From positions 19,017 through 83,016 of IMG/VR virus record IMGVR_UViG_3300032046_000015: a DNA stretch of 64,000 bases. The stretch is one strand, 5' to 3'. The stretch's first letter is position 1; the number at the start of each line of letters is the position of its first letter. This stretch comes from a virus. The position numbers were made by a program, and so were the translations under genes. Below, in pieces: positions 3,901 to 50,509 of the stretch. The notes under the pieces were generated by a model. The model had not been told where the DNA came from. It made no database searches and worked only from the letters and a program-made list of their open reading frames with translations.

Positions 3901-4303
3901 CTGACTTGGATAGAACATCCAATTCACGTCCTGCTCCGCATCCCATCACTAACACATCCTGTCCTTGGATGTATGGACTGATGGCCGCAAAATCTCTTAT
4001 GAATAAATCTGTAACATCAATCAGCCCAGGGCTGAAATAGTTTTCACCATACTCTTCATCTGTTGGCATTGATGTTGCCTTCCCAAGTTGCGTGTAGTTC
4101 AGACCACGCTTTATCATCTCATCTCTCAATATATTAAACTTGTTCAGAAGTGTAGCCACAGTCAATCCATCGGTGGACTTACCATCGCCAGCCCCTCCTT
4201 CAGTTAACAGTGCATACAACTGGTGACAGCGCCAATGTAAGTTCAACAACTCCTGGTTGTCCACCGCTGCTAGACTGTCTTTTGTGATATCGTTTATTTT
4301 CAT
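947..4303 (-). CDS. Polyprotein: SAM methyltransferase + nucleotidyltransferase-like + ATP-dependent DNA ligase + LigD phosphoesterase-like + XkdF-type prohead protease
   Basis: VLVMGCGAG/GVDNS/FDTVLSMHTLEH (MTase); LVGGS..HDIDMLIR (Pol-beta fold); EQKYNGWR, ILDAD, VFDVLYYDG, EGAVAK, WSKIK (ligase); HTDIR..EFWFDGKLLKGRWIF (PE-like); LVTGIVLEP..IEKAAHDFL..VVESWIAP..GFSIKG (XkdF). Confidence 0.8.
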   Translation of the reverse strand: MKINDITKDSLAAVDNQELLNLHWRCHQLYALLTEGGAGDGKSTDGLTVATLLNKFNILRDEMIKRGLNYTQLGKATSMPTDEEYGENYFSPGLIDVTDLFIRDFAAISPYIQGQDVLVMGCGAGRELDVLSKSGFNVEGVDNSITAMKLCGQHNHKVKKEDVNKLSYPDGAFDTVLSMHTLEHLSDPNAAIDESLRIARMRAIHLVPLGKRLDLTHKREFKSMDDLRSCMAGYEVAKYIFRTEDNNAVVVFDKTAEAPAQIFNGLGDMVLCPGYINLVGGSIKQQEPHDIDMLIRQDNPDSALEVKVRNQIPEGMRHLVHYVYHASGPHDDHIPLYDLVAVLRPEAKRINVSKADTLKPLQRFIPLKTAGGYSQQEYFTPEEFNTGWAEALLKEKIGIDVEQKYNGWRTVLEADSADKTLIFFEDSKDDRSKQFPSLVDDLKAIGQGVILDADLGAVHDNGRPVARKDLAAWAGNQVVPVSGQLTLADGSKASIIAHVFDVLYYDGQDLHSKPWTERRGILEDLFGKYDFKFMKITPKHVVDNKAALLKIISDVSKQPGSEGAVAKAVNSDYPLTGQTPAWSKIKNLVEIKVQVLSRQTVSGSPRTWNYTVAYEDDKGKLVTLGKTFNTNLDAPDGSIITLGVEEIIPEYDNVADVWKITAVVPKVRDREVGSTKAENIKSIVQRADEGNVLQADPETRAALLESGFKVEKRLAIRKQTEGQLDFKAGDSGTAILQTHERGLTEDQVKLLGGTFHFGVDPIKLTPVQITKLDQIAKGNWTAAIANAADGDSSQLSSLIKGIDKTTLNKDQLKLLALVEPVSIHTDIRMRPGTAPYWEGGEGFTPGNQFQINKFIELDPTHKILANFKTARSDEGGAASGQVIQGPLSWMNVGANKPQSFPPGAVGSTTNAWSRLTIIDKIKWKAGTQDPHYKEFWFDGKLLKGRWIFQFVPVGPGRREWMIARPADQEFPNNPETAKPPATAPTQKAYNTTIIKIDTVKRLVTGIVLEPETFDAQDQIYDAPVIEKAAHDFLAEYNKGSKTGVMHEDYSRPIEVVESWIAPITMMIGDQQVKPGTWIMTVHVTDNETWKQVENNQLTGFSIKGMAVARRLGPERSVA

Positions 4304-17324: not shown

Positions 17325-17398
17325 TCAGGGTGAGTGGATTTGAACCACCGACCACTTGCGCCCAAGGCAAGTGCGCTACCAGGCTGCGCCACACCCTG
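17325..17398 (-). tRNA. tRNA-Pro(UGG), CCA not encoded
   Basis: CAGGGTG/CACCCTG acceptor stem, GCGC D-stem, CTTGC-CTTGGGC-GCAAG anticodon arm, GGTTCAAATCC T-loop. Confidence 0.93.
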
Positions 17399-17404
17399 AC
17401 ACAC

Positions 17405-17902
17405 TCATATGCCTGTTAGCAACTCCAACATCTTCTTGTCATCTATCCTCTTTGTGTGTAATTCTCTGGCTAGACAACCATTGCTCTTACAAGCATACTT
17501 ACTGGACACAATCTCCAGCTTGACTCTGACTCCACCCGCTTTGTGTTGAGTGATTGACCATAAGCTGTATGGCATCATGTCAATACACCTGCTTTTGGCT
17601 TGCGGCCCACGATCAAAGATAATGACAACAGTGCTTTGGCCATACTTGGGATGTTTAGGATTATTGTTGGTCACTCTGACGATGGTACCAAATGGCAGAG
17701 TCTTGTGCGCTGCTGTTGGATCGTGGCAGTTGACTACTATCCCACTTGCTCCTACACGGCCATTCCAACCGCAACCATAATGTGTCGCTATCCCACTCAT
17801 TTGGTGTTGGACAAGCTTTGACATGAATAACAACAGTAATATGGTTTCCATCAATACACTCCTGTTCTGGTACAGTTGTGGAAATGGTCTGTCTTCACCC
17901 AC
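17405..17902 (-). CDS. RlpA-like lytic transglycosylase (DPBB); likely start ~17852
   Basis: TAAHKTLPFGTIVRVTN and IFDRGP..CIDM. Confidence 0.85.
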   Translation of the reverse strand: MGEDRPFPQLYQNRSVLMETILLLLFMSKLVQHQMSGIATHYGCGWNGRVGASGIVVNCHDPTAAHKTLPFGTIVRVTNNNPKHPKYGQSTVVIIFDRGPQAKSRCIDMMPYSLWSITQHKAGGVRVKLEIVSSKYACKSNGCLARELHTKRIDDKKMLELLTGI

Positions 17903-18954: not shown

Positions 18955-19251
18955 TTAATGAATCATGATCTTGGGAGTGATCTTTTCAACCATTCCCTCA
19001 ATCTCAGTCGTCAAACAGGCAGATACTGCCATACCAAATGACAGATACACTATTTGTTCTGGCGACATCTTGCACTGCTCTGTCAATTCCTTACACAACA
19101 AAAGCAGTTTGTTGCGTCTGTGTGGATCTGCCACATCCTTTGCTACCTTATTAAGTAGTGGCTCACCCTGTGTATTAGCCACCATATCAACAAGGCAACG
19201 TTCAACTTCACTCTTTGCTTCATTATCATCCATGATTCCATCTCCTCTCAT
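18955..19251 (-). CDS. Hypothetical protein
   Basis: ORF with GAGGAG RBS before MDDNE. Confidence 0.55.
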   Translation of the reverse strand: MRGDGIMDDNEAKSEVERCLVDMVANTQGEPLLNKVAKDVADPHRRNKLLLLCKELTEQCKMSPEQIVYLSFGMAVSACLTTEIEGMVEKITPKIMIH

Positions 19252-19283
19252 AGTGTTGTGATTTGCCTTATTATATGTGGCAT

Positions 19284-41119: not shown

Positions 41120-42949
41120 TTACACGTGGATGACACCGTCTGTGTTCAGTTTCTGTATAGCCTTGACCACGCCATCGGTATTGGCCTCAACCACGCCCAT
41201 GAGTCTGGCCTTGAACGCTCCATCAAACGCTGTGTCCTTGATGTCTGTCTTGAATGGTACAGCCTTTTGAGCGATATTTGTGTCTGGACATGGCAACCCC
41301 ACATCGATGTTTCCGGTGCGTGGTTTGATATAAAGGATAGCCAGACCTTGCTCCCTGCCTGTAGTCTTATGGCAGTACATGGTCAGGTATCCAGAACCAC
41401 CACCGCCCAATGGCGTCTTGTCGATGATGTAAAAATCGCCATCATTCTGTGCCGCTGCTTTGTCCATTAACGTCTTGCTGAACGCTGCCGCTATCTTGTG
41501 GGCCAGAGTCATGGCCAAGAGTCTGGACGGATTGTTAGGATCAAGCATGCCCGATATGACCTTGGGTTTTGGTTCTGCCTTGGCCTTGGGAGCAGCCTTC
41601 TTTGTCTCCTCTCCTGCTGGTTCTGTCGCTGGCTCAGAAGCATCCGCAGGGGCTGGTTTTTCTTTGGCCTTGGTATCCGATTGAGGCTTGGCTGTTGCTT
41701 TGGCAGCTTTGGGTTTTTCCTTGGCAGCTTTGGGCTTGCTTTTGTCCGGTTTGGCCTTGGCATCTGCTGTTTCCGCAGGAGTTTCAGTTGATGTGTCCGC
41801 TTTGGGTGCTTCCGCTGGCGCTGGCGTTGGTGTGTCCGCTTTGGGTGCTTCCTGTTTAGCCTTCTTGCCTTTGGACTTGCCACCCTTCTTCATCAACTCA
41901 GTTCCCTTCTGAAGCAGTGCGATGATTCCATCCTCTCCTGCTGTTGCGGCTGTTTTGACGATGTTAGTCCATTCGCCACCCTCAGCTTCTGCCACCGCTC
42001 TGGCGGCATCAGCTATAGGTTTGCACTCATCACGTTTGGCACATGGTTCCTTTTCCTTTTCCTGTTTGGCTGATGGGTTGCCATCGCACTCTGCGAGTCC
42101 AACCTCATAAAAGCCAACGCATCCACCACTTCCCTGTTCATCCTTCTGTTCGTCTGACATGTCGTCACCTCCAGTTAAAATTTGGCCAACCAAAGATTGG
42201 CTTGTCAATACACAAGATTTTTCGCCTGTGTCCTTATTATTTGATGTTGTAGCTAAAAGTATCATTTTGGCCTTGATCCTTTTTAAGCTGCTTTTAATTT
42301 GTCCAGTTGTTGCTCCTATCTTTTGAGATAGATAACTGATCACCTGAAAACTGCGAGTCAACACTTCTGCCAAATCCCGCAAGTCTTGTGGTGGATTCAG
42401 AACCATCTGTAGCACCTTCCTGTCTATAGGTTTGTCCAAAGATTCAAACAAACGTTGCCTATTCATTTTGGACACACGATTATGTTCCAAATCCATCAAT
42501 ATGGTTTCTGGTGTATTTCTGTGTACAAGCCAACAATCCTCTCTCTTATGGGCATGGTGGCCTAATGCCAATGGCTCCTCTGCCAACCATTGTTCTGGAC
42601 TTGGATACACAGAATGTGGGCTCAATTGTACTTTGTTGGTTTCGCTGTCTATATAATGTGGATTGCGCTTTTGTGCGAAGTGATATGATATAATCATGGG
42701 CGCCACATTATTCAGAGATTGGTAGAAATATGTGCTAAATTTGACACCTTTGTTGGGATCAAATTTCACCATAGCAGCCATAAGAGTCATCCTGAACATC
42801 TGTTCAATATCTGCCACATCCTCTCCTATCTTGAATGATAGTTGTATGGCCTTCTTGTGTATGAGTGGTGCTACACCATTCAACACCGTCTCAAACTTTT
42901 TTCTCACTTCATCCGGACAAGTGAAATTGTCTGGTACCAATTTGATCAT
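41120..42949 (-). CDS. Sigma-70-like factor fused in frame to a Cys4/Ala-Lys-Pro-rich protein (internal start at 42160)
   Basis: DIEQ..LMAAMVKFDPNKGVKFSTY (region 2); C-terminal HTH-like ISYLSQKIG; GAAAGGA RBS at 42949; GGAGGTGA RBS before 42160. Confidence 0.7.
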   Translation of the reverse strand: MIKLVPDNFTCPDEVRKKFETVLNGVAPLIHKKAIQLSFKIGEDVADIEQMFRMTLMAAMVKFDPNKGVKFSTYFYQSLNNVAPMIISYHFAQKRNPHYIDSETNKVQLSPHSVYPSPEQWLAEEPLALGHHAHKREDCWLVHRNTPETILMDLEHNRVSKMNRQRLFESLDKPIDRKVLQMVLNPPQDLRDLAEVLTRSFQVISYLSQKIGATTGQIKSSLKRIKAKMILLATTSNNKDTGEKSCVLTSQSLVGQILTGGDDMSDEQKDEQGSGGCVGFYEVGLAECDGNPSAKQEKEKEPCAKRDECKPIADAARAVAEAEGGEWTNIVKTAATAGEDGIIALLQKGTELMKKGGKSKGKKAKQEAPKADTPTPAPAEAPKADTSTETPAETADAKAKPDKSKPKAAKEKPKAAKATAKPQSDTKAKEKPAPADASEPATEPAGEETKKAAPKAKAEPKPKVISGMLDPNNPSRLLAMTLAHKIAAAFSKTLMDKAAAQNDGDFYIIDKTPLGGGGSGYLTMYCHKTTGREQGLAILYIKPRTGNIDVGLPCPDTNIAQKAVPFKTDIKDTAFDGAFKARLMGVVEANTDGVVKAIQKLNTDGVIHV

Positions 42950-43052
42950 AATTTGCCATCCTTTCATAAGTGTGCTTGGCCCCACCACTCCAAGCACGTG
43001 TCCCGTTGGACATGACCTTGTGTCCAACTACCATTGGCTGGAAGACTTTGAT

Positions 43053-43127
43053 CTGACTCTATCTCTGTCAGGCTGGAAGCAAGTCAACTTTCCAGCGACA
43101 TCCGCTGTGTGTAGCGGATGTTTCGAT
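43053..43127 (-). ncRNA. Type II hammerhead ribozyme HH1 (variant core CUGACAGA)
   Basis: AUC-GAAA-CAUCCGCU/AGCGGAUG-UC|GCUGGAA/UUCCAGC-CUGACAGA-GAU; loop UGACU pairs with downstream AGUCA; predicted cut 43097/43096. Confidence 0.75.
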
Positions 43128-43164
43128 TGTCTTGACCAAGCCTTCACGGTCATTAATATCTTTG

Positions 43165-43749
43165 TCACTTCATCCGTTCAAGATCATCCCTGCTCCAACT
43201 CCTCTGGTTGGTTATATACCTGGCATAATGCCTGTGTAAACGTTTCATGTCATCCAGATTATCACCGCAAATTTCATTCCAAATATCGTGCCAACCCCAA
43301 TCAAATTTGCGGCCATCGGATAACGTTGGTTTGAATGTGTAGGCATCATGGCAAATGACATGTAACTTGTTTAAGTGTGTAAGGTGTGGCATTACCAAGT
43401 CTATGACTTCAGGTTGAATCTCTATTACCAAAACATATTCAACTTCATCCTTGCTGGCAACCGCACTGGCAATCACACCCAAACCCAATCCTGATATGAA
43501 GACACGACCTTCTGCCTTGTGGTAGAAATGTTGGTGCATCCTCATCTCCATAGGAGTGTCGGTCATCACTATGCCGCCTTGATGTGTCAATCTTGTGTAC
43601 TCTCCTGGATCAACCATAGTCTGTGGCCTTCTGTTGATGAGAGCACGCAAATTGGCAAACTCTGCTTGTTCTTTTGTGATTGTGAACTTATCTATAGCCC
43701 AATCACCCTTCTTGCCTTCTGGCACAATCGCTTTGCTTAACATGGTCAT
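43165..43749 (-). CDS. SAM-dependent methyltransferase-like (spermidine synthase-like fold)
   Basis: VFISGLGLG, VIEIQPEVIDLV, DAY, WHDIW. Confidence 0.75.
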   Translation of the reverse strand: MTMLSKAIVPEGKKGDWAIDKFTITKEQAEFANLRALINRRPQTMVDPGEYTRLTHQGGIVMTDTPMEMRMHQHFYHKAEGRVFISGLGLGVIASAVASKDEVEYVLVIEIQPEVIDLVMPHLTHLNKLHVICHDAYTFKPTLSDGRKFDWGWHDIWNEICGDNLDDMKRLHRHYARYITNQRSWSRDDLERMK

Positions 43750-43758
43750 TCTCTCCTC

Positions 43759-44172
43759 TTAACTGAACTTGTATTCAGGTGGTTCATTAATGTTTTGGAT
43801 TTCATGTTCCTGCTGGTCAACATCGCCAGTGGTGAAGATAGAGACAACATGGCAATATGAAGCATCTGCCAACACTTCCGCAACTTCACTTGCGTAGTCA
43901 ATCAGATCAGACACAAAGCTCAATACTATTTCACCGCCATCAGAAGTGCGGACAACATGCCAGTTATCCCTATCAAACATATATGAATATTCATGTCCTC
44001 TTATCCGCACTGGTTGTTTACCTTCTTCATACAGGAGTGTGTAAAACTCCACAAATTGATCCTTCATATCGTTGATACTGGTTCTGTCATCTATGTCGGT
44101 GCCATATAATTTACACAACAGTATCAGATGTTTTGGATTGATGATATCCTTCTTGCCTGGAATGCTTTTCAT
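43759..44172 (-). CDS. Hypothetical protein
   Basis: 137 aa, GAGGA RBS. Confidence 0.6.
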   Translation of the reverse strand: MKSIPGKKDIINPKHLILLCKLYGTDIDDRTSINDMKDQFVEFYTLLYEEGKQPVRIRGHEYSYMFDRDNWHVVRTSDGGEIVLSFVSDLIDYASEVAEVLADASYCHVVSIFTTGDVDQQEHEIQNINEPPEYKFS

Positions 44173-44187
44173 TTCATCCTCTCCTCT

Positions 44188-44565
44188 TTACTTTCTGGCT
44201 GCGTTGACTATGTTGTTGATTGCTTCATTGATCTTGCTTACAGCAGATGATAAATCTTTGTATGTGGCGAATAGTGTGGCACGCTCTGGTGTAATGTCAT
44301 GAACCTGATTCTTGGGTATGCGAACATAGTCACTTTTATCCACTAATTTCCACACGTCCGTGATCTTTGTTCCCTGTGTTGTTTCTATGTGTCCAATCAG
44401 ACTGTATTTGTCCTCAAGTGTTTTTGGTCCAATTGCGAACACATACTCTGGTGTCTCTTTAACATACACCATCTCTATGATTGCCGGTTGCCAATCGCCA
44501 TACCTTCTGTATGACACCCAATAAAATTTGTCTCCTCTGTTCATTTCCTTGTACCATCCTTTCAT
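44188..44565 (-). CDS. Hypothetical protein
   Basis: ORF directly downstream of HH2. Confidence 0.6.
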   Translation of the reverse strand: MKGWYKEMNRGDKFYWVSYRRYGDWQPAIIEMVYVKETPEYVFAIGPKTLEDKYSLIGHIETTQGTKITDVWKLVDKSDYVRIPKNQVHDITPERATLFATYKDLSSAVSKINEAINNIVNAARK

Positions 44566-44577
44566 GTGTTAAATTCT

Positions 44578-44650
44578 GGTGACTTGCCATCATCAGGCCA
44601 ACGGTGGTCAACCATTGACGACATCCGCTGTGTGTAGCGGATGTTTCGGC
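44578..44650 (-). ncRNA. Type II hammerhead ribozyme HH2
   Basis: GCC-GAAA-CAUCCGCU/AGCGGAUG-UC|GUCAAUGG/CCGUUGGC-CUGAUGA-U-GGC; loop UGAC with downstream GUCA; predicted cut 44620/44619. Confidence 0.88.
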
Positions 44651-44657
44651 ATGCTTG

Positions 44658-44861
44658 TTAACAAATTCCATTCACTTCACCATGCTCCATCTTGCGTTGG
44701 AATTTGATTTTGGGGTGATACCTTTTGGCTGTCTCTTTTATCCTCTTTAATCGTGTGTCCTTGAAACAGTCAATCAACTCCTCTCCATCAAACACTTCAA
44801 CCCTGTATCCTTCCAACTCGCCTGTGTTCTGCCAAACCACTCTTACAATCACTGCTCTCAT
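44658..44861 (-). CDS. Hypothetical protein (MRAVIVRV..)
   Basis: GAAAGGA RBS before ATG 44861. Confidence 0.55.
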   Translation of the reverse strand: MRAVIVRVVWQNTGELEGYRVEVFDGEELIDCFKDTRLKRIKETAKRYHPKIKFQRKMEHGEVNGIC

Positions 44862-45177
44862 TGGACATCCTTTCATATGTGATTTCAGAATACACTCTGA
44901 TTGTTTCATATCTTGATGCGAATCCAAGTGGCCCTTTTTGTGGATAATTCACAGCCAAACCCCAGTGCCTTATTTTTGTCACTTTGGGAGCAGACATTTT
45001 CAGCCACCTATTGCCATGCTTTTGCCAAGCCTTCTGCGCTGCTTCACTCCTGCTATTGGCAAACATTTTCACTGTTTCCATATATAGCGTAACACCTTTG
45101 GGCCAGCTATCCTTTGGAAAATAACACTTTGGTATGCTGACCTTATATAGTTGTGTTCCCTTGGGCGCCATTGGCAT
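44797..45177 (-). CDS. Hypothetical protein
   Basis: GAGGAGAGG RBS. Confidence 0.55.
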   Translation of the reverse strand: MPMAPKGTQLYKVSIPKCYFPKDSWPKGVTLYMETVKMFANSRSEAAQKAWQKHGNRWLKMSAPKVTKIRHWGLAVNYPQKGPLGFASRYETIRVYSEITYERMSNESSDCKSGLAEHRRVGRIQG

Positions 45178-45709
45178 CCTCTCCTCTCCGCATATAGCGT
45201 TGTCTGACCTGATCCAAAGAATTCATGTCCATTTTGGCTTTGTTATCAGTTGACCCCAGCACCGTCTGTTTTCCGTTGTTTCCAACTTTTACCACTTCCA
45301 CAACTCCACCCTTCCAACTGAATGTGGTCTGTTCCTTCTGCGGTTTCATTTCCTTTGTCTCAGGAGTGGCTTCAACTTGTGCTGTGGATTCCGGTGTGTT
45401 GCCGTTATTCTCATTGGCAATCTCTGTCAACTGCTTGCGATATTTGGTCAGCATTTTCCTGATCGCTGCCGCTTGCTTGTCTGTGAAATTCTTGCACTTT
45501 CCAAACGATTCAATCAGTGATCCAGAGAATGGTGCGTCCATCTTGTTGAATCCTCTTTTGTTAGTGATGTGGGTATCATGTGTGCTCTGTTCATCCGTTG
45601 TTTGCCTGTCCCACATTTTATTGAGTGGTCTGATCAAAGCCTTCTTGTCCATTCTTTGAATCAGCGCCACCACCTCATCCTCTGTCCATACCTTGTTCGC
45701 CATTGTCAT
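45143..45709 (-). CDS. Conserved phage hypothetical protein
   Basis: RQTTDEQ..NKRGFNKMDA..KYRKQL pattern; GAGGAG RBS. Confidence 0.7.
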   Translation of the reverse strand: MTMANKVWTEDEVVALIQRMDKKALIRPLNKMWDRQTTDEQSTHDTHITNKRGFNKMDAPFSGSLIESFGKCKNFTDKQAAAIRKMLTKYRKQLTEIANENNGNTPESTAQVEATPETKEMKPQKEQTTFSWKGGVVEVVKVGNNGKQTVLGSTDNKAKMDMNSLDQVRQRYMRRGEDANGAQGNTTI

Positions 45710-45730
45710 TCTCCTCTCTGTGTAGTTATC

Positions 45731-45811
45731 CGTTGATTTGTCTCATCGGCACGCAGGTAATCAACGCTGCGTGGACAGAGGAATGTGGCTGGTCACTCCT
45801 CTGTTTCGACA
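45731..45811 (-). ncRNA. Type II hammerhead ribozyme HH3 (variant core CCGAUGA)
   Basis: UGUC-GAAA-CAGAGGA/UCCUCUG-UC|CACGCAG/CUGCGUG-CCGAUGA-GACA; 8-bp pseudoknot CGUUGAUU/AAUCAACG; predicted cut 45774/45773. Confidence 0.85.
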
Positions 45812-45816
45812 GTTGA

Positions 45817-47865
45817 TCAAATATGTTTGATCATGTGTTTCTTTAGGATGTTTAGAATAACAGCAGGCATCTTGTCCATGTCATTGATCACAGCATACTC
45901 TGGATAGAATTGCTTAACATAGTCAACGTCCAAACCTATGCCAATCAACTCTATTCCTGCTTTGATCACTTTTCTAATGACATTATTCAGATCAGATTTC
46001 AACAAGCTCAAATCGGTGCCCCACTCCAGATTAGGTTGGCCATCCGATAGCACTATCAGCATCTTGCGTTTTTCTGTACGCTCAGCCAAACGTTTGGCTG
46101 CGAACATGATGCTTTCATTATCACAATTACAACTACTACTATTATTATCCAAACCAAGTAATCTATACTTGGCCTGATTATAGTTGTCGTTGAAGGATTT
46201 TGCGATGTAGTGTCGCAATCCCCAATAACGGTTGTAGTGACCATGAGCTTGTTCATAGTGCTTCTGAAATTCTTCAAACTTCTTATCGCCAGACTGTTTG
46301 GCATCGCCACAACGTCTTGGATGTAGTGCGTTGAAGCCAATAATTTCTATGGCAATCCCCAGCTGATTAAGTATTTCAGACAAGATCAACGCTGTCTGCC
46401 TTGCCATATGAATCTTGTTTCCTGCCATGGAACCAGAACAATCAATCAATAGCGTCACAGCAGTATCCAATTCCACTTTAGCAGATGGCTGAAAGAAAAT
46501 TTGTTTGCTTCCAGTCCTTAACCTGTACAGTGCACCGTTGTCCAAGCTGCCGCTATCCTGATCCATGACAGCGCCACGATGAGTGCGTGATCTCAACAGT
46601 GAAATGATCTTTGATCGCAACGCAGACACATTCCGTTTGACAGAATCAAACTCAGCCTTGTAGTGATCGTGTCCAACCGCAAGTGGTGTGATCTCTCTGT
46701 CCAACTTGACAGCTTCAGGATGAGGCAAATGGCGATGCTGTGATTTAGCTGTGTCCATTGCCTTCTGTGCCAACTCATCCTTTGTAGCGTTCATCAGATC
46801 ATCCGTGGTTTTGGTAGTCTCAGCTTCGTCGATGAAATCAGCGATGTCCTTTGGTTCTATTGAGTGATTGTAGTCTATATCACCACCGCTGGACTTATCC
46901 GTCAACTTTTTGCCATCAGATTTGGCATCGCTGCTGTCGTTGCTCTCAACCCCTCTCCCTTGACCTGGGCCATCTTCACCATCCTCATCCTCTTCATCGC
47001 TGTCGCCATCGCTGTCGCTATCCTCTCCAGCGTCACTCTCCTCTTCACCACTCTCCTCTTCAACGTCTTCACCCTCATCCTCTTCATCAGCACCACCGTT
47101 GCCCTGTCCACTCTCCTCTTCACCACTCTCCTCTTCAACATCATCCGGTTGAGGAGTGTTCTTGCCCTTGCCTTTGCCGCTATCCTTCTTGTTATCTTTT
47201 TGCTCTTGAGCTTTCTGCTGTTTAGCTTGCTGTTCCTGCTGCTGTTGTAACTCCTCTTTATAATCGCCCAAAGCCTTGAGTGTGTCTCTGGCTAGATCAA
47301 AAGCCTGTTGGTAATCGGATACAGAATTGGCTTTTGACCAAGTTGGCCTTAAAGCCTCAACGATGGCCTGTGCCTCTTTAGGTAACCACGACACGTCATA
47401 ACCCATCAACCTGCCCAAGATACCCATGCCAATCGCTTTGAACGGATCAATCTGATCTCTATTCCTTTTGGCAGATACAAAACCATGATCATTGGCAGCT
47501 TTGATGTTCTGCGAACAGCCAATCAACTCTCCAGATAGTTCACGTTCAATCCTATAATCCTCAAACACGTTGAACAACTGCTTGAGTTTATTGTCCGTTG
47601 TGTTCTTCAGCAAATCCAACGGTGTAGTGCGCCCAGCTTCTTGTGCCTTGCGCTGTACTTCCACGTGCTTCCACTCATGATCCAACAATCCTTCCAACAC
47701 ACTCGCATCCGCATCCTTCATATCGTCAGCATTGACAGGGATGTTAATGGTGTCTATCATGTTAGTATCACACCTGAAACCAGACAGCTGAACGTTGATG
47801 TTAAAGTTGCGTGAGAACGTCCTTGCTATCTTTGTCCATCTTGTGTCCAATCTGTTACCAGCCAT
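45817..47865 (-). CDS. CobT-like VWA protein with N-terminal HExxH domain and acidic linker
   Basis: LDHEWKH..NVFEDYRIE; LLIDCSGSM MIDAS; VLSDGQP; IGIG. Confidence 0.88.
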   Translation of the reverse strand: MAGNRLDTRWTKIARTFSRNFNINVQLSGFRCDTNMIDTINIPVNADDMKDADASVLEGLLDHEWKHVEVQRKAQEAGRTTPLDLLKNTTDNKLKQLFNVFEDYRIERELSGELIGCSQNIKAANDHGFVSAKRNRDQIDPFKAIGMGILGRLMGYDVSWLPKEAQAIVEALRPTWSKANSVSDYQQAFDLARDTLKALGDYKEELQQQQEQQAKQQKAQEQKDNKKDSGKGKGKNTPQPDDVEEESGEEESGQGNGGADEEDEGEDVEEESGEEESDAGEDSDSDGDSDEEDEDGEDGPGQGRGVESNDSSDAKSDGKKLTDKSSGGDIDYNHSIEPKDIADFIDEAETTKTTDDLMNATKDELAQKAMDTAKSQHRHLPHPEAVKLDREITPLAVGHDHYKAEFDSVKRNVSALRSKIISLLRSRTHRGAVMDQDSGSLDNGALYRLRTGSKQIFFQPSAKVELDTAVTLLIDCSGSMAGNKIHMARQTALILSEILNQLGIAIEIIGFNALHPRRCGDAKQSGDKKFEEFQKHYEQAHGHYNRYWGLRHYIAKSFNDNYNQAKYRLLGLDNNSSSCNCDNESIMFAAKRLAERTEKRKMLIVLSDGQPNLEWGTDLSLLKSDLNNVIRKVIKAGIELIGIGLDVDYVKQFYPEYAVINDMDKMPAVILNILKKHMIKHI
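47034..47139. repeat. 31-bp direct repeat in acidic linker (VEEESGEEES x2)
   Basis: Copies at 47034-47064 and 47109-47139. Confidence 0.8.
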
Positions 47866-47891
47866 TGTCTTGTCCTTTCATGTGTTATTTT

Positions 47892-47965
47892 CTGACAACC
47901 TATCATCGTCAGTTACCAGAGGTCAACCTGGTAAGACAGCCGCACTGTGTACGGCTGTTTCGATA
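47892..47965 (-). ncRNA. Type II hammerhead ribozyme HH4
   Basis: UAUC-GAAA-CAGCCGU/GCGGCUG-UC|UUACCAG/CUGGUAA-CUGACGA-U-GAUA; predicted cut 47935/47934. Confidence 0.88.
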
Positions 47966-47967
47966 TG

Positions 47968-49155
47968 TCAGTATCCAAAGATGCGCTGGACGATGGCTTT
48001 CACATAAGTCTCATCCTCTTTGGATAGTTTGTTAAGAACAGCAACCTGCGCTGCCTTGTGAACTCCCAGTTTACCTATCTTGTTTGCCCACATGATAAGT
48101 CTGCGAGTGGACAGCGTGCAGTGGCATTCCTCATGGATCAATCCGTTGCGAACATACTTGGCCACTTCAACCAGCTTCTTGGCCACATCCAAACCAACAT
48201 TGGCTTTTCTGTGTATTATCATGGCTTCTTGCGTTTGTGGAATGTAATCCTGAAAAATCACCGTTCCAAACCTATCCAAGAAGGCTTCATTGAGTGTGTT
48301 AGTGCCAACATATAATCCAGTGTCATCACCGTGTCCAGTCGTGTTCGCTGTGGATATGATTCTGAAATTCTCATGCGGCTCAACAACCTCACCATGATTC
48401 GCAGTCAATACCAATTGGCCACTATCTAGCACAGACTGTAACACGAACAGGATTTGCGGTGTGGCGGCATCTATCTCATCTAACAGCAACCAGTATCCTC
48501 TCCGCATGGCATCCGGCAGGACACCATCTTTCCAAGAGACAATCGCTTGATTTGTGGATGTCGCTATTTCTACAACCTTTTCACCTACAAAATCGGATGC
48601 CCTGATATCACCATGTAGATTCACACGCTTAACAGGTTGGTTGAGCAGCGCAGCCAATTCCTTAACAGTCGCTGTTTTACCGCAACCTGTCGGGCCAACC
48701 ATCAGAACGTTATCACCTTGCTCTATCCCCAAGGCCAACATTTCCGTGACCGCTGGGTCAAGATCAAAATTTGGATCGTGGTTTGGGATGTGCTTCTTAT
48801 CTATCTCATCCAAACCGTTATCCGGTCTCAAGGACAACTCCGCAGCCCCAAACGTTAATGCCAACCCGTTTGCCACCGCTGGGCTTACAGTTGGCTCAAG
48901 TGTAATAACGTTTGCGCCATTCTCTGGCTTATCAGCGTTGCCATTTAAGTTGTTCAGTTGCTTACCTTTTTGAGCCATGCTTATTTGGTTGCTACCAAAC
49001 AGACTAATCGTGGGTGCCCCAAGATGTTTAGCCTTGTAAGTATGGACATCCATTCCATGTCTGCTTTTGAGGTGGACGGCCAGAGTATGGTACCATCTAC
49101 CACACTCTTGGCATTCGATCATCTCATTGCCATTCCTGTCTAACTTTCCAGCCAT
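47968..49155 (-). CDS. MoxR-family AAA+ ATPase (CobS/CbbQ-like) with N-terminal C2H2 zinc finger
   Basis: CQEC..HLKSRH; GPTGCGKT, LLDEID, TANT, NEAFLDRF, STRRL. Confidence 0.9.
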   Translation of the reverse strand: MAGKLDRNGNEMIECQECGRWYHTLAVHLKSRHGMDVHTYKAKHLGAPTISLFGSNQISMAQKGKQLNNLNGNADKPENGANVITLEPTVSPAVANGLALTFGAAELSLRPDNGLDEIDKKHIPNHDPNFDLDPAVTEMLALGIEQGDNVLMVGPTGCGKTATVKELAALLNQPVKRVNLHGDIRASDFVGEKVVEIATSTNQAIVSWKDGVLPDAMRRGYWLLLDEIDAATPQILFVLQSVLDSGQLVLTANHGEVVEPHENFRIISTANTTGHGDDTGLYVGTNTLNEAFLDRFGTVIFQDYIPQTQEAMIIHRKANVGLDVAKKLVEVAKYVRNGLIHEECHCTLSTRRLIMWANKIGKLGVHKAAQVAVLNKLSKEDETYVKAIVQRIFGY

Positions 49156-49183
49156 GTTCTTATCCTCTTTTCATGTGTTATTT

Positions 49184-49258
49184 TCTGACAACCTATCATC
49201 GTCAGCGTTTGGGTGGTCAATCCCAAACGGACACCCGCTGTGTAGCGGATGTTTCGGC
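49184..49258 (-). ncRNA. Type II hammerhead ribozyme HH5 (weak stem II)
   Basis: GCC-GAAA-CAUCCGCU/AGCGGGUG-UC|CGUUUGGG/CCCAAACG-CUGACGA-U-GAU; predicted cut 49230/49229. Confidence 0.8.
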
Positions 49259-49261
49259 TTG

Positions 49262-49540
49262 TTACTCTGCTATTGTTACTAAAGTCAAATATCCACCGCC
49301 ACGTTGCTTGTTTGTTTGCGTAACATCAAAACCTATGCGCCTCAACATATCCTCTTGTCCAACTGGCCCACCACCTATTCTCCAACGTCTGCCAGACTTG
49401 GGTGAGTATGGACTGCGCCAACTGCCTCTCAGCCCACCTATTACATCAGATATGGCTGCGGCACCGTTTGATTGTTCGATGATTGACTTTATATCCTCTT
49501 TAATCTCAGCAATCATCTTCAATTCCACTTCTTGCCTCAT
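49262..49540 (-). CDS. Hypothetical protein flanked by HH6 and HH5
   Basis: 92 aa, GAAAGGA RBS. Confidence 0.6.
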   Translation of the reverse strand: MRQEVELKMIAEIKEDIKSIIEQSNGAAAISDVIGGLRGSWRSPYSPKSGRRWRIGGGPVGQEDMLRRIGFDVTQTNKQRGGGYLTLVTIAE

Positions 49541-49574
49541 GTCTTTATCATCCTTTCATTGTGTGTAATTATCT

Positions 49575-49657
49575 GGTGACTTGCTTCATCAGCGTCCAGG
49601 TTGTCAACCTGTGACGTACAAGCCAGTGTGTTATTTCAACACCAGCTTGTTTCAGCT
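49575..49657 (-). ncRNA. Type II hammerhead ribozyme HH6 (GUA cleavage triplet)
   Basis: GCU-GAAA-CAAGCU..GGCUUG-UA|CGUC(A)CAGG/CCUGGACG-CUGAUGA-AGC; loop UGAC with downstream GUCA; predicted cut 49617/49616. Confidence 0.88.
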
Positions 49658-49984
49658 TTGTACTCTCTCACATGCGCCACTTTCAGCCCCCATGCGTAAA
49701 CGATTACACATGACGCTCAGCTTATCTGACGCTGTGTTTTCCCTTGTCCCTGTCTCTCTCCTCTTTAAGTCTGTGGGCTTGCTCCCCTGTCCCCACCAGG
49801 CTACACCACTCACCTGTCCACTCCGCACCGTGTGGAAAACTGATTTTTGCTTACTGCCAGACTGGTCTAACTGGCCTCAGGCTTCACCCGTTTTTTGCGT
49901 CAGGCCTGGAAAATCTTAACTTGTCAAAGTGGTGTGGGCGTCCGTTTATCCCGCTCAGGCTTCACTTGTGCACCGCACTATGTC

Positions 49985-50509
49985 TATAAAGTAAAGCGAA
50001 AAACAAGCCGTCTATCCTATATCTTATATATTTTCATCAAAAACTATCCCAATTTTGGCACAATTTGATATCAATATAGTGTGTAATACGAACAATAATA
50101 TGACAATTTTGTACAAAAGACAAAATAATTTTGACATCAAAATTTCCCATATCATAGTATCCCAAATTATAACAATATTGATATAAATTTCTTTACTATC
50201 TCATTGTCCATAACTGTTGTCCAATCTGATGAGCATTCACAATTTATAACAATTTTGATAGTAATATGTGTCCACTTTGATAGTATGTTTTCTTTACTTC
50301 ATAGTAAAGAATCTTTACCAATTTGATTGTGTAATGTTACCTATTTACCCCAACAAATAGTAATTTTTTCTTACCAATCATTACACACATAATATTGTCT
50401 ATAAATGGCGACACAGACAAGATTGGTATTTGACAACAACCTGTCTGTGTAATCGTTGTGTTGATTGACTAAGAAAATTTTAGCTGGCAACTAAGAAAAA
50501 AGTAGCCAA
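49985..50509. promoter_or_regulatory. AT-rich non-coding region (candidate origin/promoter region)
   Basis: No ORF; visibly AT-rich; imperfect repeats TTATAACAAT(A/T)TTGATA x2, TTTCTTTACT x2, ACTAAGAAAA x2. Confidence 0.5.

Follow-up and report, generated by a model that had tools for sequence, protein, structure and literature searches.

What are the six structured elements that separate the genes of a minus-strand module in an uncultured phage, and would they divide its messages? The elements lie in a complete 83,016-bp virus record with direct terminal repeats (IMG/VR record IMGVR_UViG_3300032046_000015), assembled from a sediment metagenome, of which bases 19017-83016 form the stretch analysed here (64,000 nucleotides, called the window, whose numbering is used throughout). 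Essentially all of its long open reading frames (ORFs) are on the minus strand. A sequence-only reading of the window had described the elements as type II hammerhead ribozymes; they are referred to below as HH1 to HH6, in the direction of the minus strand. This identity was borne out. It is well supported, on sequence grounds, that all six are genuine type II hammerheads, intergenic and on the coding strand, with a pseudoknot between loop I and the 3' tail, because held-out copies were recovered by a covariance model, the three stems and the pseudoknot covary, and the placement is conserved in a related contig. The fuller reading, that the six constitute a self-cleaving array which segments one minus-strand operon in the replication/early module, is in our judgment probable.

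The genome was searched with a strict type II descriptor, consisting of GAAA, a stem III hairpin closed by A15.1-U16.1, H17, a stem I hairpin, C[U/C]GA-N1-2-GA and a stem II of at least 3 bp. Exactly six matches were found in the 83,016 bp, all on the minus strand and spanning 6.6 kb, with none on the plus strand of the whole genome; shuffled genomes (n=30) yielded a mean of 0.13 matches each. The N17 positions given by the descriptor (Table 1) place the cleavage sites where the earlier reading had put them. A covariance model, R1, was trained on HH2, HH3, HH5 and HH6 only, and recovered the two held-out copies, HH4 at 34.9 bits (E-value 2.6e-8) and HH1 at 34.5 bits (E-value 3.5e-8); its next-best match scored 14.9 bits and had no hammerhead core. 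A second model, R2, run over the whole genome with filters off, returned the same six elements and nothing more. Given the descriptor count relative to the shuffles and the recovery of the held-out copies, the six elements are deemed real, far beyond chance.

All six follow one order: an open stem II of 3-4 bp, GAAA, a stem III hairpin of 9-12 bp, the triplet GUC (GUA in HH1), a stem I hairpin of 7-9 bp, the CUGANGA strand and the return strand of stem II. The minimum free energy (MFE) fold of every copy contains stems I and III, with z-scores of -3.0 to -5.0, and the sequence of stem I is unique to each copy and pairs in each, as had been claimed. Equally in line with the earlier account, loop I contains UUGA(C/U) in 6/6 copies and a complementary tract, the other strand of the predicted pseudoknot, lies 0-4 nt past stem II. 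The pseudoknot measures 4-8 bp across nine copies (these six and three from the relative described below), a lone 4-bp match not being significant on its own. The core (C3 U4 G5 A6 N7 G8 A9, G12 A13 A14, A15.1-U16.1, H17) is complete in HH1, HH2, HH3 and HH5. The statement that all cores read CUGANGA did not hold, as HH4 has CCGAUGA (U4C) and HH6 has CUGACAGA, with one extra nucleotide between A6 and G8. HH3 and HH5 carry one extra U after A9, before stem II, a position at which an additional nucleotide is tolerated in hammerheads.

The copies differ in the details of their helices. HH1 combines a GCU/AGC stem II (A10.1-U11.1) with a 12-bp stem III, an 8-bp stem I with a bulged A, and the pseudoknot UGAC/GUCA; it scores 62.3 bits with R2, and its fold has a z-score of -4.7. 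The same pseudoknot recurs in HH3, where stem II is UAUC/GAUA. HH4 pairs (U)GUC/GAC(A) in stem II and has an 8-bp pseudoknot, CGUUGAUU/AAUCAACG, which was equalled by 8 of 2000 shuffles of its tail. The MFE fold of HH5 is itself the hammerhead secondary structure, with UGCC/GGCA as stem II and 9 bp in each of stems I and III, and HH6 has AUC/GAU as stem II and UGACU/AGUCA as the pseudoknot.

Comparison with other phages was provided chiefly by a metagenome contig, L082, whose CobS and CobT proteins are ~60% and 38% (full length) identical to those of this phage. It contains three type II hammerheads, one immediately upstream of CobS, one in the gap from CobS to CobT, and one ~170 nt past the end of CobT; the first two junctions are shared with the phage studied here, and synteny, which the earlier reading had listed as a check, was thus found. 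These copies score 44.2, 42.6 and 34.6 bits with the Rfam type II family RF02276 (Hammerhead_II; gathering score 37 bits), the first two thus passing the threshold, and all three have a canonical core, including the one downstream of CobT, where HH4 is a variant. The small ORFs beside the conserved CobS and CobT genes differ between the two phages. When the nine sequences were aligned, 93.8% of cells were paired, in comparison to 29-46% when the partners were slid, in an alignment whose fitting to the model somewhat favours the structure. As many as 17 of the 21 stem pairs change on both sides (matched by 0/500 shuffles), and the 11 core positions are retained while the stems covary. The pseudoknot covaries as well: it is mostly UGAC/GUCA, with UGAU/AUCA inside the 8-bp helix of HH4 and UGACC/GGUCA in L082. 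The 170-nt gap from the CobT stop codon to the third L082 hammerhead (L082 positions 4062-4233) also holds a GC-rich hairpin at ~4120-4145.

No similar DNA was found in GenBank phages by blastn of the region, and the stem III probe retrieved nothing from IMG/VR. An L082-type probe retrieved two further phage contigs with one copy each, in which the stop codon is followed in turn by the ribozyme, a short leader, a Shine-Dalgarno site and the start codon. None of 80 IMG/VR loci with CobS-like genes (at most 49% identity) contained a hammerhead by descriptor, covariance model or Rfam, and no ribozyme was present at the matching junctions of RHEph10, nickie and ANB28, cultured phages that have a CobT-CobS-(sigma)-DnaE module. 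Sixteen contigs retrieved with a degenerate 3'-half probe were discarded as chance matches, none being a hammerhead by R2. Identity to the nearest CobS homologs is 59%; P0003, the closest long relative, is encoded on a 94-kb contig, which was returned by neither the metagenome scan nor the viral scan, and a genome-contig scan on the Walker-A motif gave only distant AAA+ genes among the matches listed.

The placement of the six copies is regular. HH2 to HH5 begin 2, 2, 5 and 6 nt after the upstream stop codon, which agrees with the earlier count of four elements within about 10 nt; the distance is 37 nt for HH6, and HH1 overlaps a doubtful ORF of 58 amino acids. All six are intergenic and on the coding strand, and the units bounded by them comprise 1, 1, 1, 3 and 3 ORFs. 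Self-processing of this region is proposed on the basis of hammerhead chemistry and of the in vitro and in vivo cleavage published for triple arrays (PMC3088659). The long transcript would be made as one, and each ribozyme would fold and cut after N17, some 30-70 nt downstream of the preceding stop codon and, in 6/6 copies, 55-77 nt upstream of the next start codon. On the 5' side of the cut, the message would thereby retain its stop codon and terminate with the stem III hairpin (9-12 bp) and a 2',3'-cyclic phosphate; on the 3' side, the message would start, with a 5'-OH, within the stem I hairpin, and an A-rich leader and a Shine-Dalgarno site would come next. The resulting units would be the 92-amino-acid ORF, the CobS-like gene, the CobT-like gene, two blocks of three ORFs each, and the sigma-like gene and beyond, with the stability and translation of each then independent of its neighbours. 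RiboJ-type insulators offer an analogy, of function only: there, a hammerhead before the ribosome-binding site trims upstream RNA and leaves a defined 5'-OH hairpin leader, and the ribozyme was engineered from a type III satellite ribozyme.

Several points weigh against this scheme of array and segmentation, in which we infer the single transcript, the cleavage by each copy and the stabilisation by the new ends alike. The Rfam search proposed by the sequence-only reading was successful only in part: at gathering thresholds none of the six elements was reported in the window, where a tRNA was the only result, and under a permissive threshold RF02276 gave full-length matches to HH3 (35.7 bits, E-value 1.7e-4, just short of the gathering score), HH5 (28.7 bits) and HH2 (23.4 bits), leaving the remaining three without a match at E <=10. 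The claim of a stem II in all six likewise needs a qualification for HH2, which has only 1 bp in the normal register and forms AGCC/GGUU (4 bp) if a bulge of 5 nt, UGAUA, is allowed; its MFE fold uses GCC/GGU. A competing helix replaces stem II in the MFE folds of HH3 and HH4, and the changes in HH4 (U4C) and HH6 (an insertion beside A6/N7) are of the kind reported to lower activity strongly (PMC3088659). Sigma-70-like promoter matches were at chance level in a promoter scan, for which reason internal promoters may exist. Stabilisation of the messages is an assumption, as the effect of a 5'-OH end depends on the RNases of whichever host the phage has. In favour of the scheme, a terminator scan gave matches at chance level only, with no terminator-like site on the minus strand in any ribozyme-bearing gap.

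The irregular copies give weight to the alternative that only some of the ribozymes are active, with HH2, HH4 and HH6 decaying, or deliberately slow or conditional, and cuts made at three or four sites or to unequal extents. This we consider a real possibility, if somewhat short of an even chance; nested transcripts and graded expression would then take the place of six clean units. Besides the core changes and the single stem II pair already described, the canonical core of the L082 copy downstream of CobT speaks for it, as does the finding of Perreault et al. (2011) that an insertion after A6 results in low activity and that U4C considerably lowers activity in vitro, being still sufficient in vivo, and that slow phage variants are possibly conditional (PMC3088659). 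HH4 and HH6 were classed as variants because both of their deviations occur in such naturally active but slower hammerheads (PMC3088659). However, the variant copies retain intact, covarying stems I and III, and the pseudoknot of HH4 is the longest of all (8 bp), which argues against simple decay. Under the six-site scheme, too, HH2, HH4 and HH6 may cut more slowly, and since their deviations are expected to slow cleavage, processing is probably uneven.

A further elaboration, which we regard as unlikely, is that the array is a kinetic programme, in which canonical HH1, HH3 and HH5 alternate with weakened HH2, HH4 and HH6 and the units are released at differing rates or conditionally. Release might depend on Mg2+ or on whether the upstream ORF, with its stop codon 2-6 nt from the ribozyme, is being translated. 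If true, such a programme would determine in what proportions, or when, the CobS-like, CobT-like, methyltransferase and sigma-like products are made.

Cleavage might instead serve mainly to destabilise or shut off the downstream messages through decay of the 5'-OH products, so that the array limits expression. There is a precedent in Bacillus subtilis, where RNase J1 degrades the 5'-OH product of the glmS ribozyme, and its bearing on this phage again turns on the host. The new 5' end is, however, paired in a stem I hairpin of 7-9 bp in 6/6 copies, which would be expected to hinder 5'-end-dependent decay, and the elements precede genes of the replication module that are apparently needed, in a placement kept in L082. 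We therefore hold a shut-off role to be improbable.

The copies are mosaic: the 3' 37 nt of HH2 and HH3 are identical, and so are the 5' 30 nt of HH5 and HH6. These exact half-ribozyme repeats raise the alternative that the halves act as junctions for RNA circularisation or splicing, or that the repeats are recombination points for cassette exchange. The 3' half of HH2 pairs 4 bp with the 5' strand of HH3, as against 1 bp with its own, and that of HH3 pairs 5 bp with the 5' strand of HH4; a hybrid ribozyme of the HH2 3' half and the HH3 5' half that religates the CobS-like unit into a circle is a possibility. Exchange of cassettes would suit the differing small ORFs beside CobS and CobT in L082. 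Yet a compatible hybrid stem II exists for only 2 of the 5 adjacent units, and pairs that are not neighbours are equally compatible, hence no systematic design for circularisation is apparent. Moreover, circular or spliced products were sought from such arrays by Perreault et al. and none were detected (PMC3088659), and recent gene conversion between copies explains the exact repeats more simply. This alternative is accordingly very unlikely. The 37-nt exact repeat of HH2 and HH3 (window 47883-47905 and 49176-49198) is where public short-read assemblies of the source sample break, from which it follows that repeated ribozymes can fragment assemblies of such phages; the public assemblies covering the region consist of DNA contigs from this phage itself and contribute no variation.

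The least probable reading gives the elements no catalytic role and takes them for inert palindromes between genes, for terminators or for chance look-alikes: 0/6 reach the Rfam gathering score, as such a view would have it, but the invariance of the core amid covarying stems, the six matches set against the 0.13 of shuffled genomes, the lack of a U-tract after the hairpins and the L082 equivalents that pass the Rfam threshold all speak against it.

A hammerhead array of this type is a further example of a known arrangement, since the clustering, the pseudoknot and the core variants were described by Perreault et al. (2011), who reported type II hammerheads with a loop I/3'-tail pseudoknot, required for fast cleavage, and core variants in phage contexts (PMC3088659). 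Both the array layout and its interpretation as processing were published there, and the six-copy case is a good but ordinary one. The closest parallels are the triple arrays that flank prophage genes in Agrobacterium tumefaciens (ardA), Azorhizobium caulinodans and Clostridium scindens, in which several hammerheads per polycistronic phage-type transcript flank single genes or short blocks; processing into gene- or operon-length mRNAs was proposed for them too, and cleavage was shown in vitro and in E. coli (PMC3088659). The present array differs in having six copies, all of type II, in an uncultured phage whose genome is complete and in a CobS/CobT/methyltransferase/sigma-like module. The HHphage element of haloviruses HF1 and HF2 is similar in being a hammerhead with a variant core a few nucleotides before an early replication gene, where it heads a polycistronic transcript whose mapped 5' end adjoins the cleavage site (PMC3088659); it occurs singly, its core insertion is another one (2a, 2b), and its setting is a halophile one. 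Type II hammerheads of Desulfovibrio vulgaris, identified by cyPhyRNA-seq, also adjoin phage-like genes and cleave in cells, at three dispersed loci and not as an array in one operon (PMC8782182).

With respect to the RF02276 family itself, the six copies share the open stem II of 3-4 bp, the hairpins of stems I and III, the GAAA, GUH and CUGANGA segments and a pseudoknot of 4-8 bp. They depart from it in scoring below the gathering score (best 35.7 vs 37) and in the features noted above: the extra U after A9 in HH3 and HH5, U4C in HH4, the additional core nucleotide in HH6 and the bulged stem II of HH2. Since the gathering threshold misses 6/6 copies, routine annotation probably undercounts such arrays. 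The purpose of hammerhead arrays in phages has been unsettled since 2011, and the value of this one lies in its complete genome, in a relative whose matching junctions supply covariation, and in a natural series of core variants beside canonical copies, which would make a compact test bed for relating cleavage rate to gene output.

Table 1. Hammerhead elements and neighbouring features of the window, in the direction of the minus strand (predicted cleavage sites given as N17/following nucleotide; aa, amino acids)
Feature	Position	Strand	Cleavage site	Description and basis
AT-rich, repeat-rich, ORF-poor stretch	50000..50500	(-)		24-32% GC; upstream of HH1, primase gene beyond
HH1	49577..49656	(-)	49617/49616	type II hammerhead; GUA triplet; core CUGAUGA
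92-aa ORF	49262..49540	(-)		function unassigned; ORF list; HH1-HH2 unit
HH2	49186..49259	(-)	49230/49229	type II hammerhead; core CUGACGA
CobS-like MoxR-type AAA+ ATPase, 395 aa	47968..49155	(-)		PF07728 1e-24, PF08406 4e-10, phrog_249 1.2e-64; HH2-HH3 unit
HH3	47893..47965	(-)	47935/47934	type II hammerhead between CobS-like and CobT-like genes; core CUGACGA + U
CobT-like VWA protein, 682 aa	45817..47865	(-)		PF11775 3.4e-25, phrog_1576 2.3e-65; HH3-HH4 unit
HH4	45731..45811	(-)	45774/45773	type II variant after CobT-like gene; core CCGAUGA (U4C)
Three small ORFs: 188 aa (phrog_21015), 126 aa, <=89 aa (start uncertain)	44658..45709	(-)		ORF list, PHROG; HH4-HH5 block
HH5	44580..44651	(-)	44620/44619	type II hammerhead; core CUGAUGA + U
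Three ORFs: 125 aa, 137 aa, 194-aa methyltransferase (phrog_15480)	43165..44565	(-)		ORF list, PHROG; HH5-HH6 block
HH6	43054..43127	(-)	43097/43096	type II variant in leader of sigma-like gene; core CUGA-CA-GA, one extra nt at N7
Sigma-factor-like protein, <=635 aa (start uncertain)	41120..43027	(-)		phrog_351 1.9e-8; first gene past HH6

The ORF-poor stretch upstream of HH1 contains many repeats, both direct and inverted, among them 48-nt units 77 nt apart and, at about 50154-50199, palindromes. It is probably a promoter or regulatory region of the ribozyme-bearing operon, or else an origin, and it is plausible as the start of the operon. The leader between it and HH1 (49660-50000) has a purine-rich sequence of about 50% GC in which 12 nt recur exactly, at 49876-49887 and 49954-49965; the 350-nt leader has a predicted fold no better than that of shuffles (z-score -0.46). 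The cut by HH1 would remove this leader from the first message. The A-rich leader ending in ACACA...GAGGA that follows five of the ribozymes is also present at 17446-17465 and 19243-19262 on the minus strand, in front of other genes, and is therefore a general translation-initiation leader of the phage and not a part of a ribozyme cassette.

The 92-amino-acid ORF had no Pfam or PHROG match and showed no relatedness to the ORF at the same position in L082. For the sigma-factor-like protein, the Sigma70_r2 match (21.6 bits) was under the cut-off. Residues 6-44 of the CobS-like ATPase, at its N-terminus, contain a Cys/His cluster (C15, C18, H28, H33) which 22 homologs share without variation, and the N-terminus gives weak ROS_MUCR and PHD-finger matches, which suggests that a zinc-finger-like domain was added to the AAA+ core in this phage clade. 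At residues ~205-335 of the CobT-like protein lies a long linker of low complexity in which Asp, Glu and Lys abound; the L082 homolog has a linker too, with an unconserved sequence. One tRNA gene was detected at 17325-17398 of the window, on the minus strand (64.5 bits), and its anticodon, as read from the loop, is apparently UGG (Pro).

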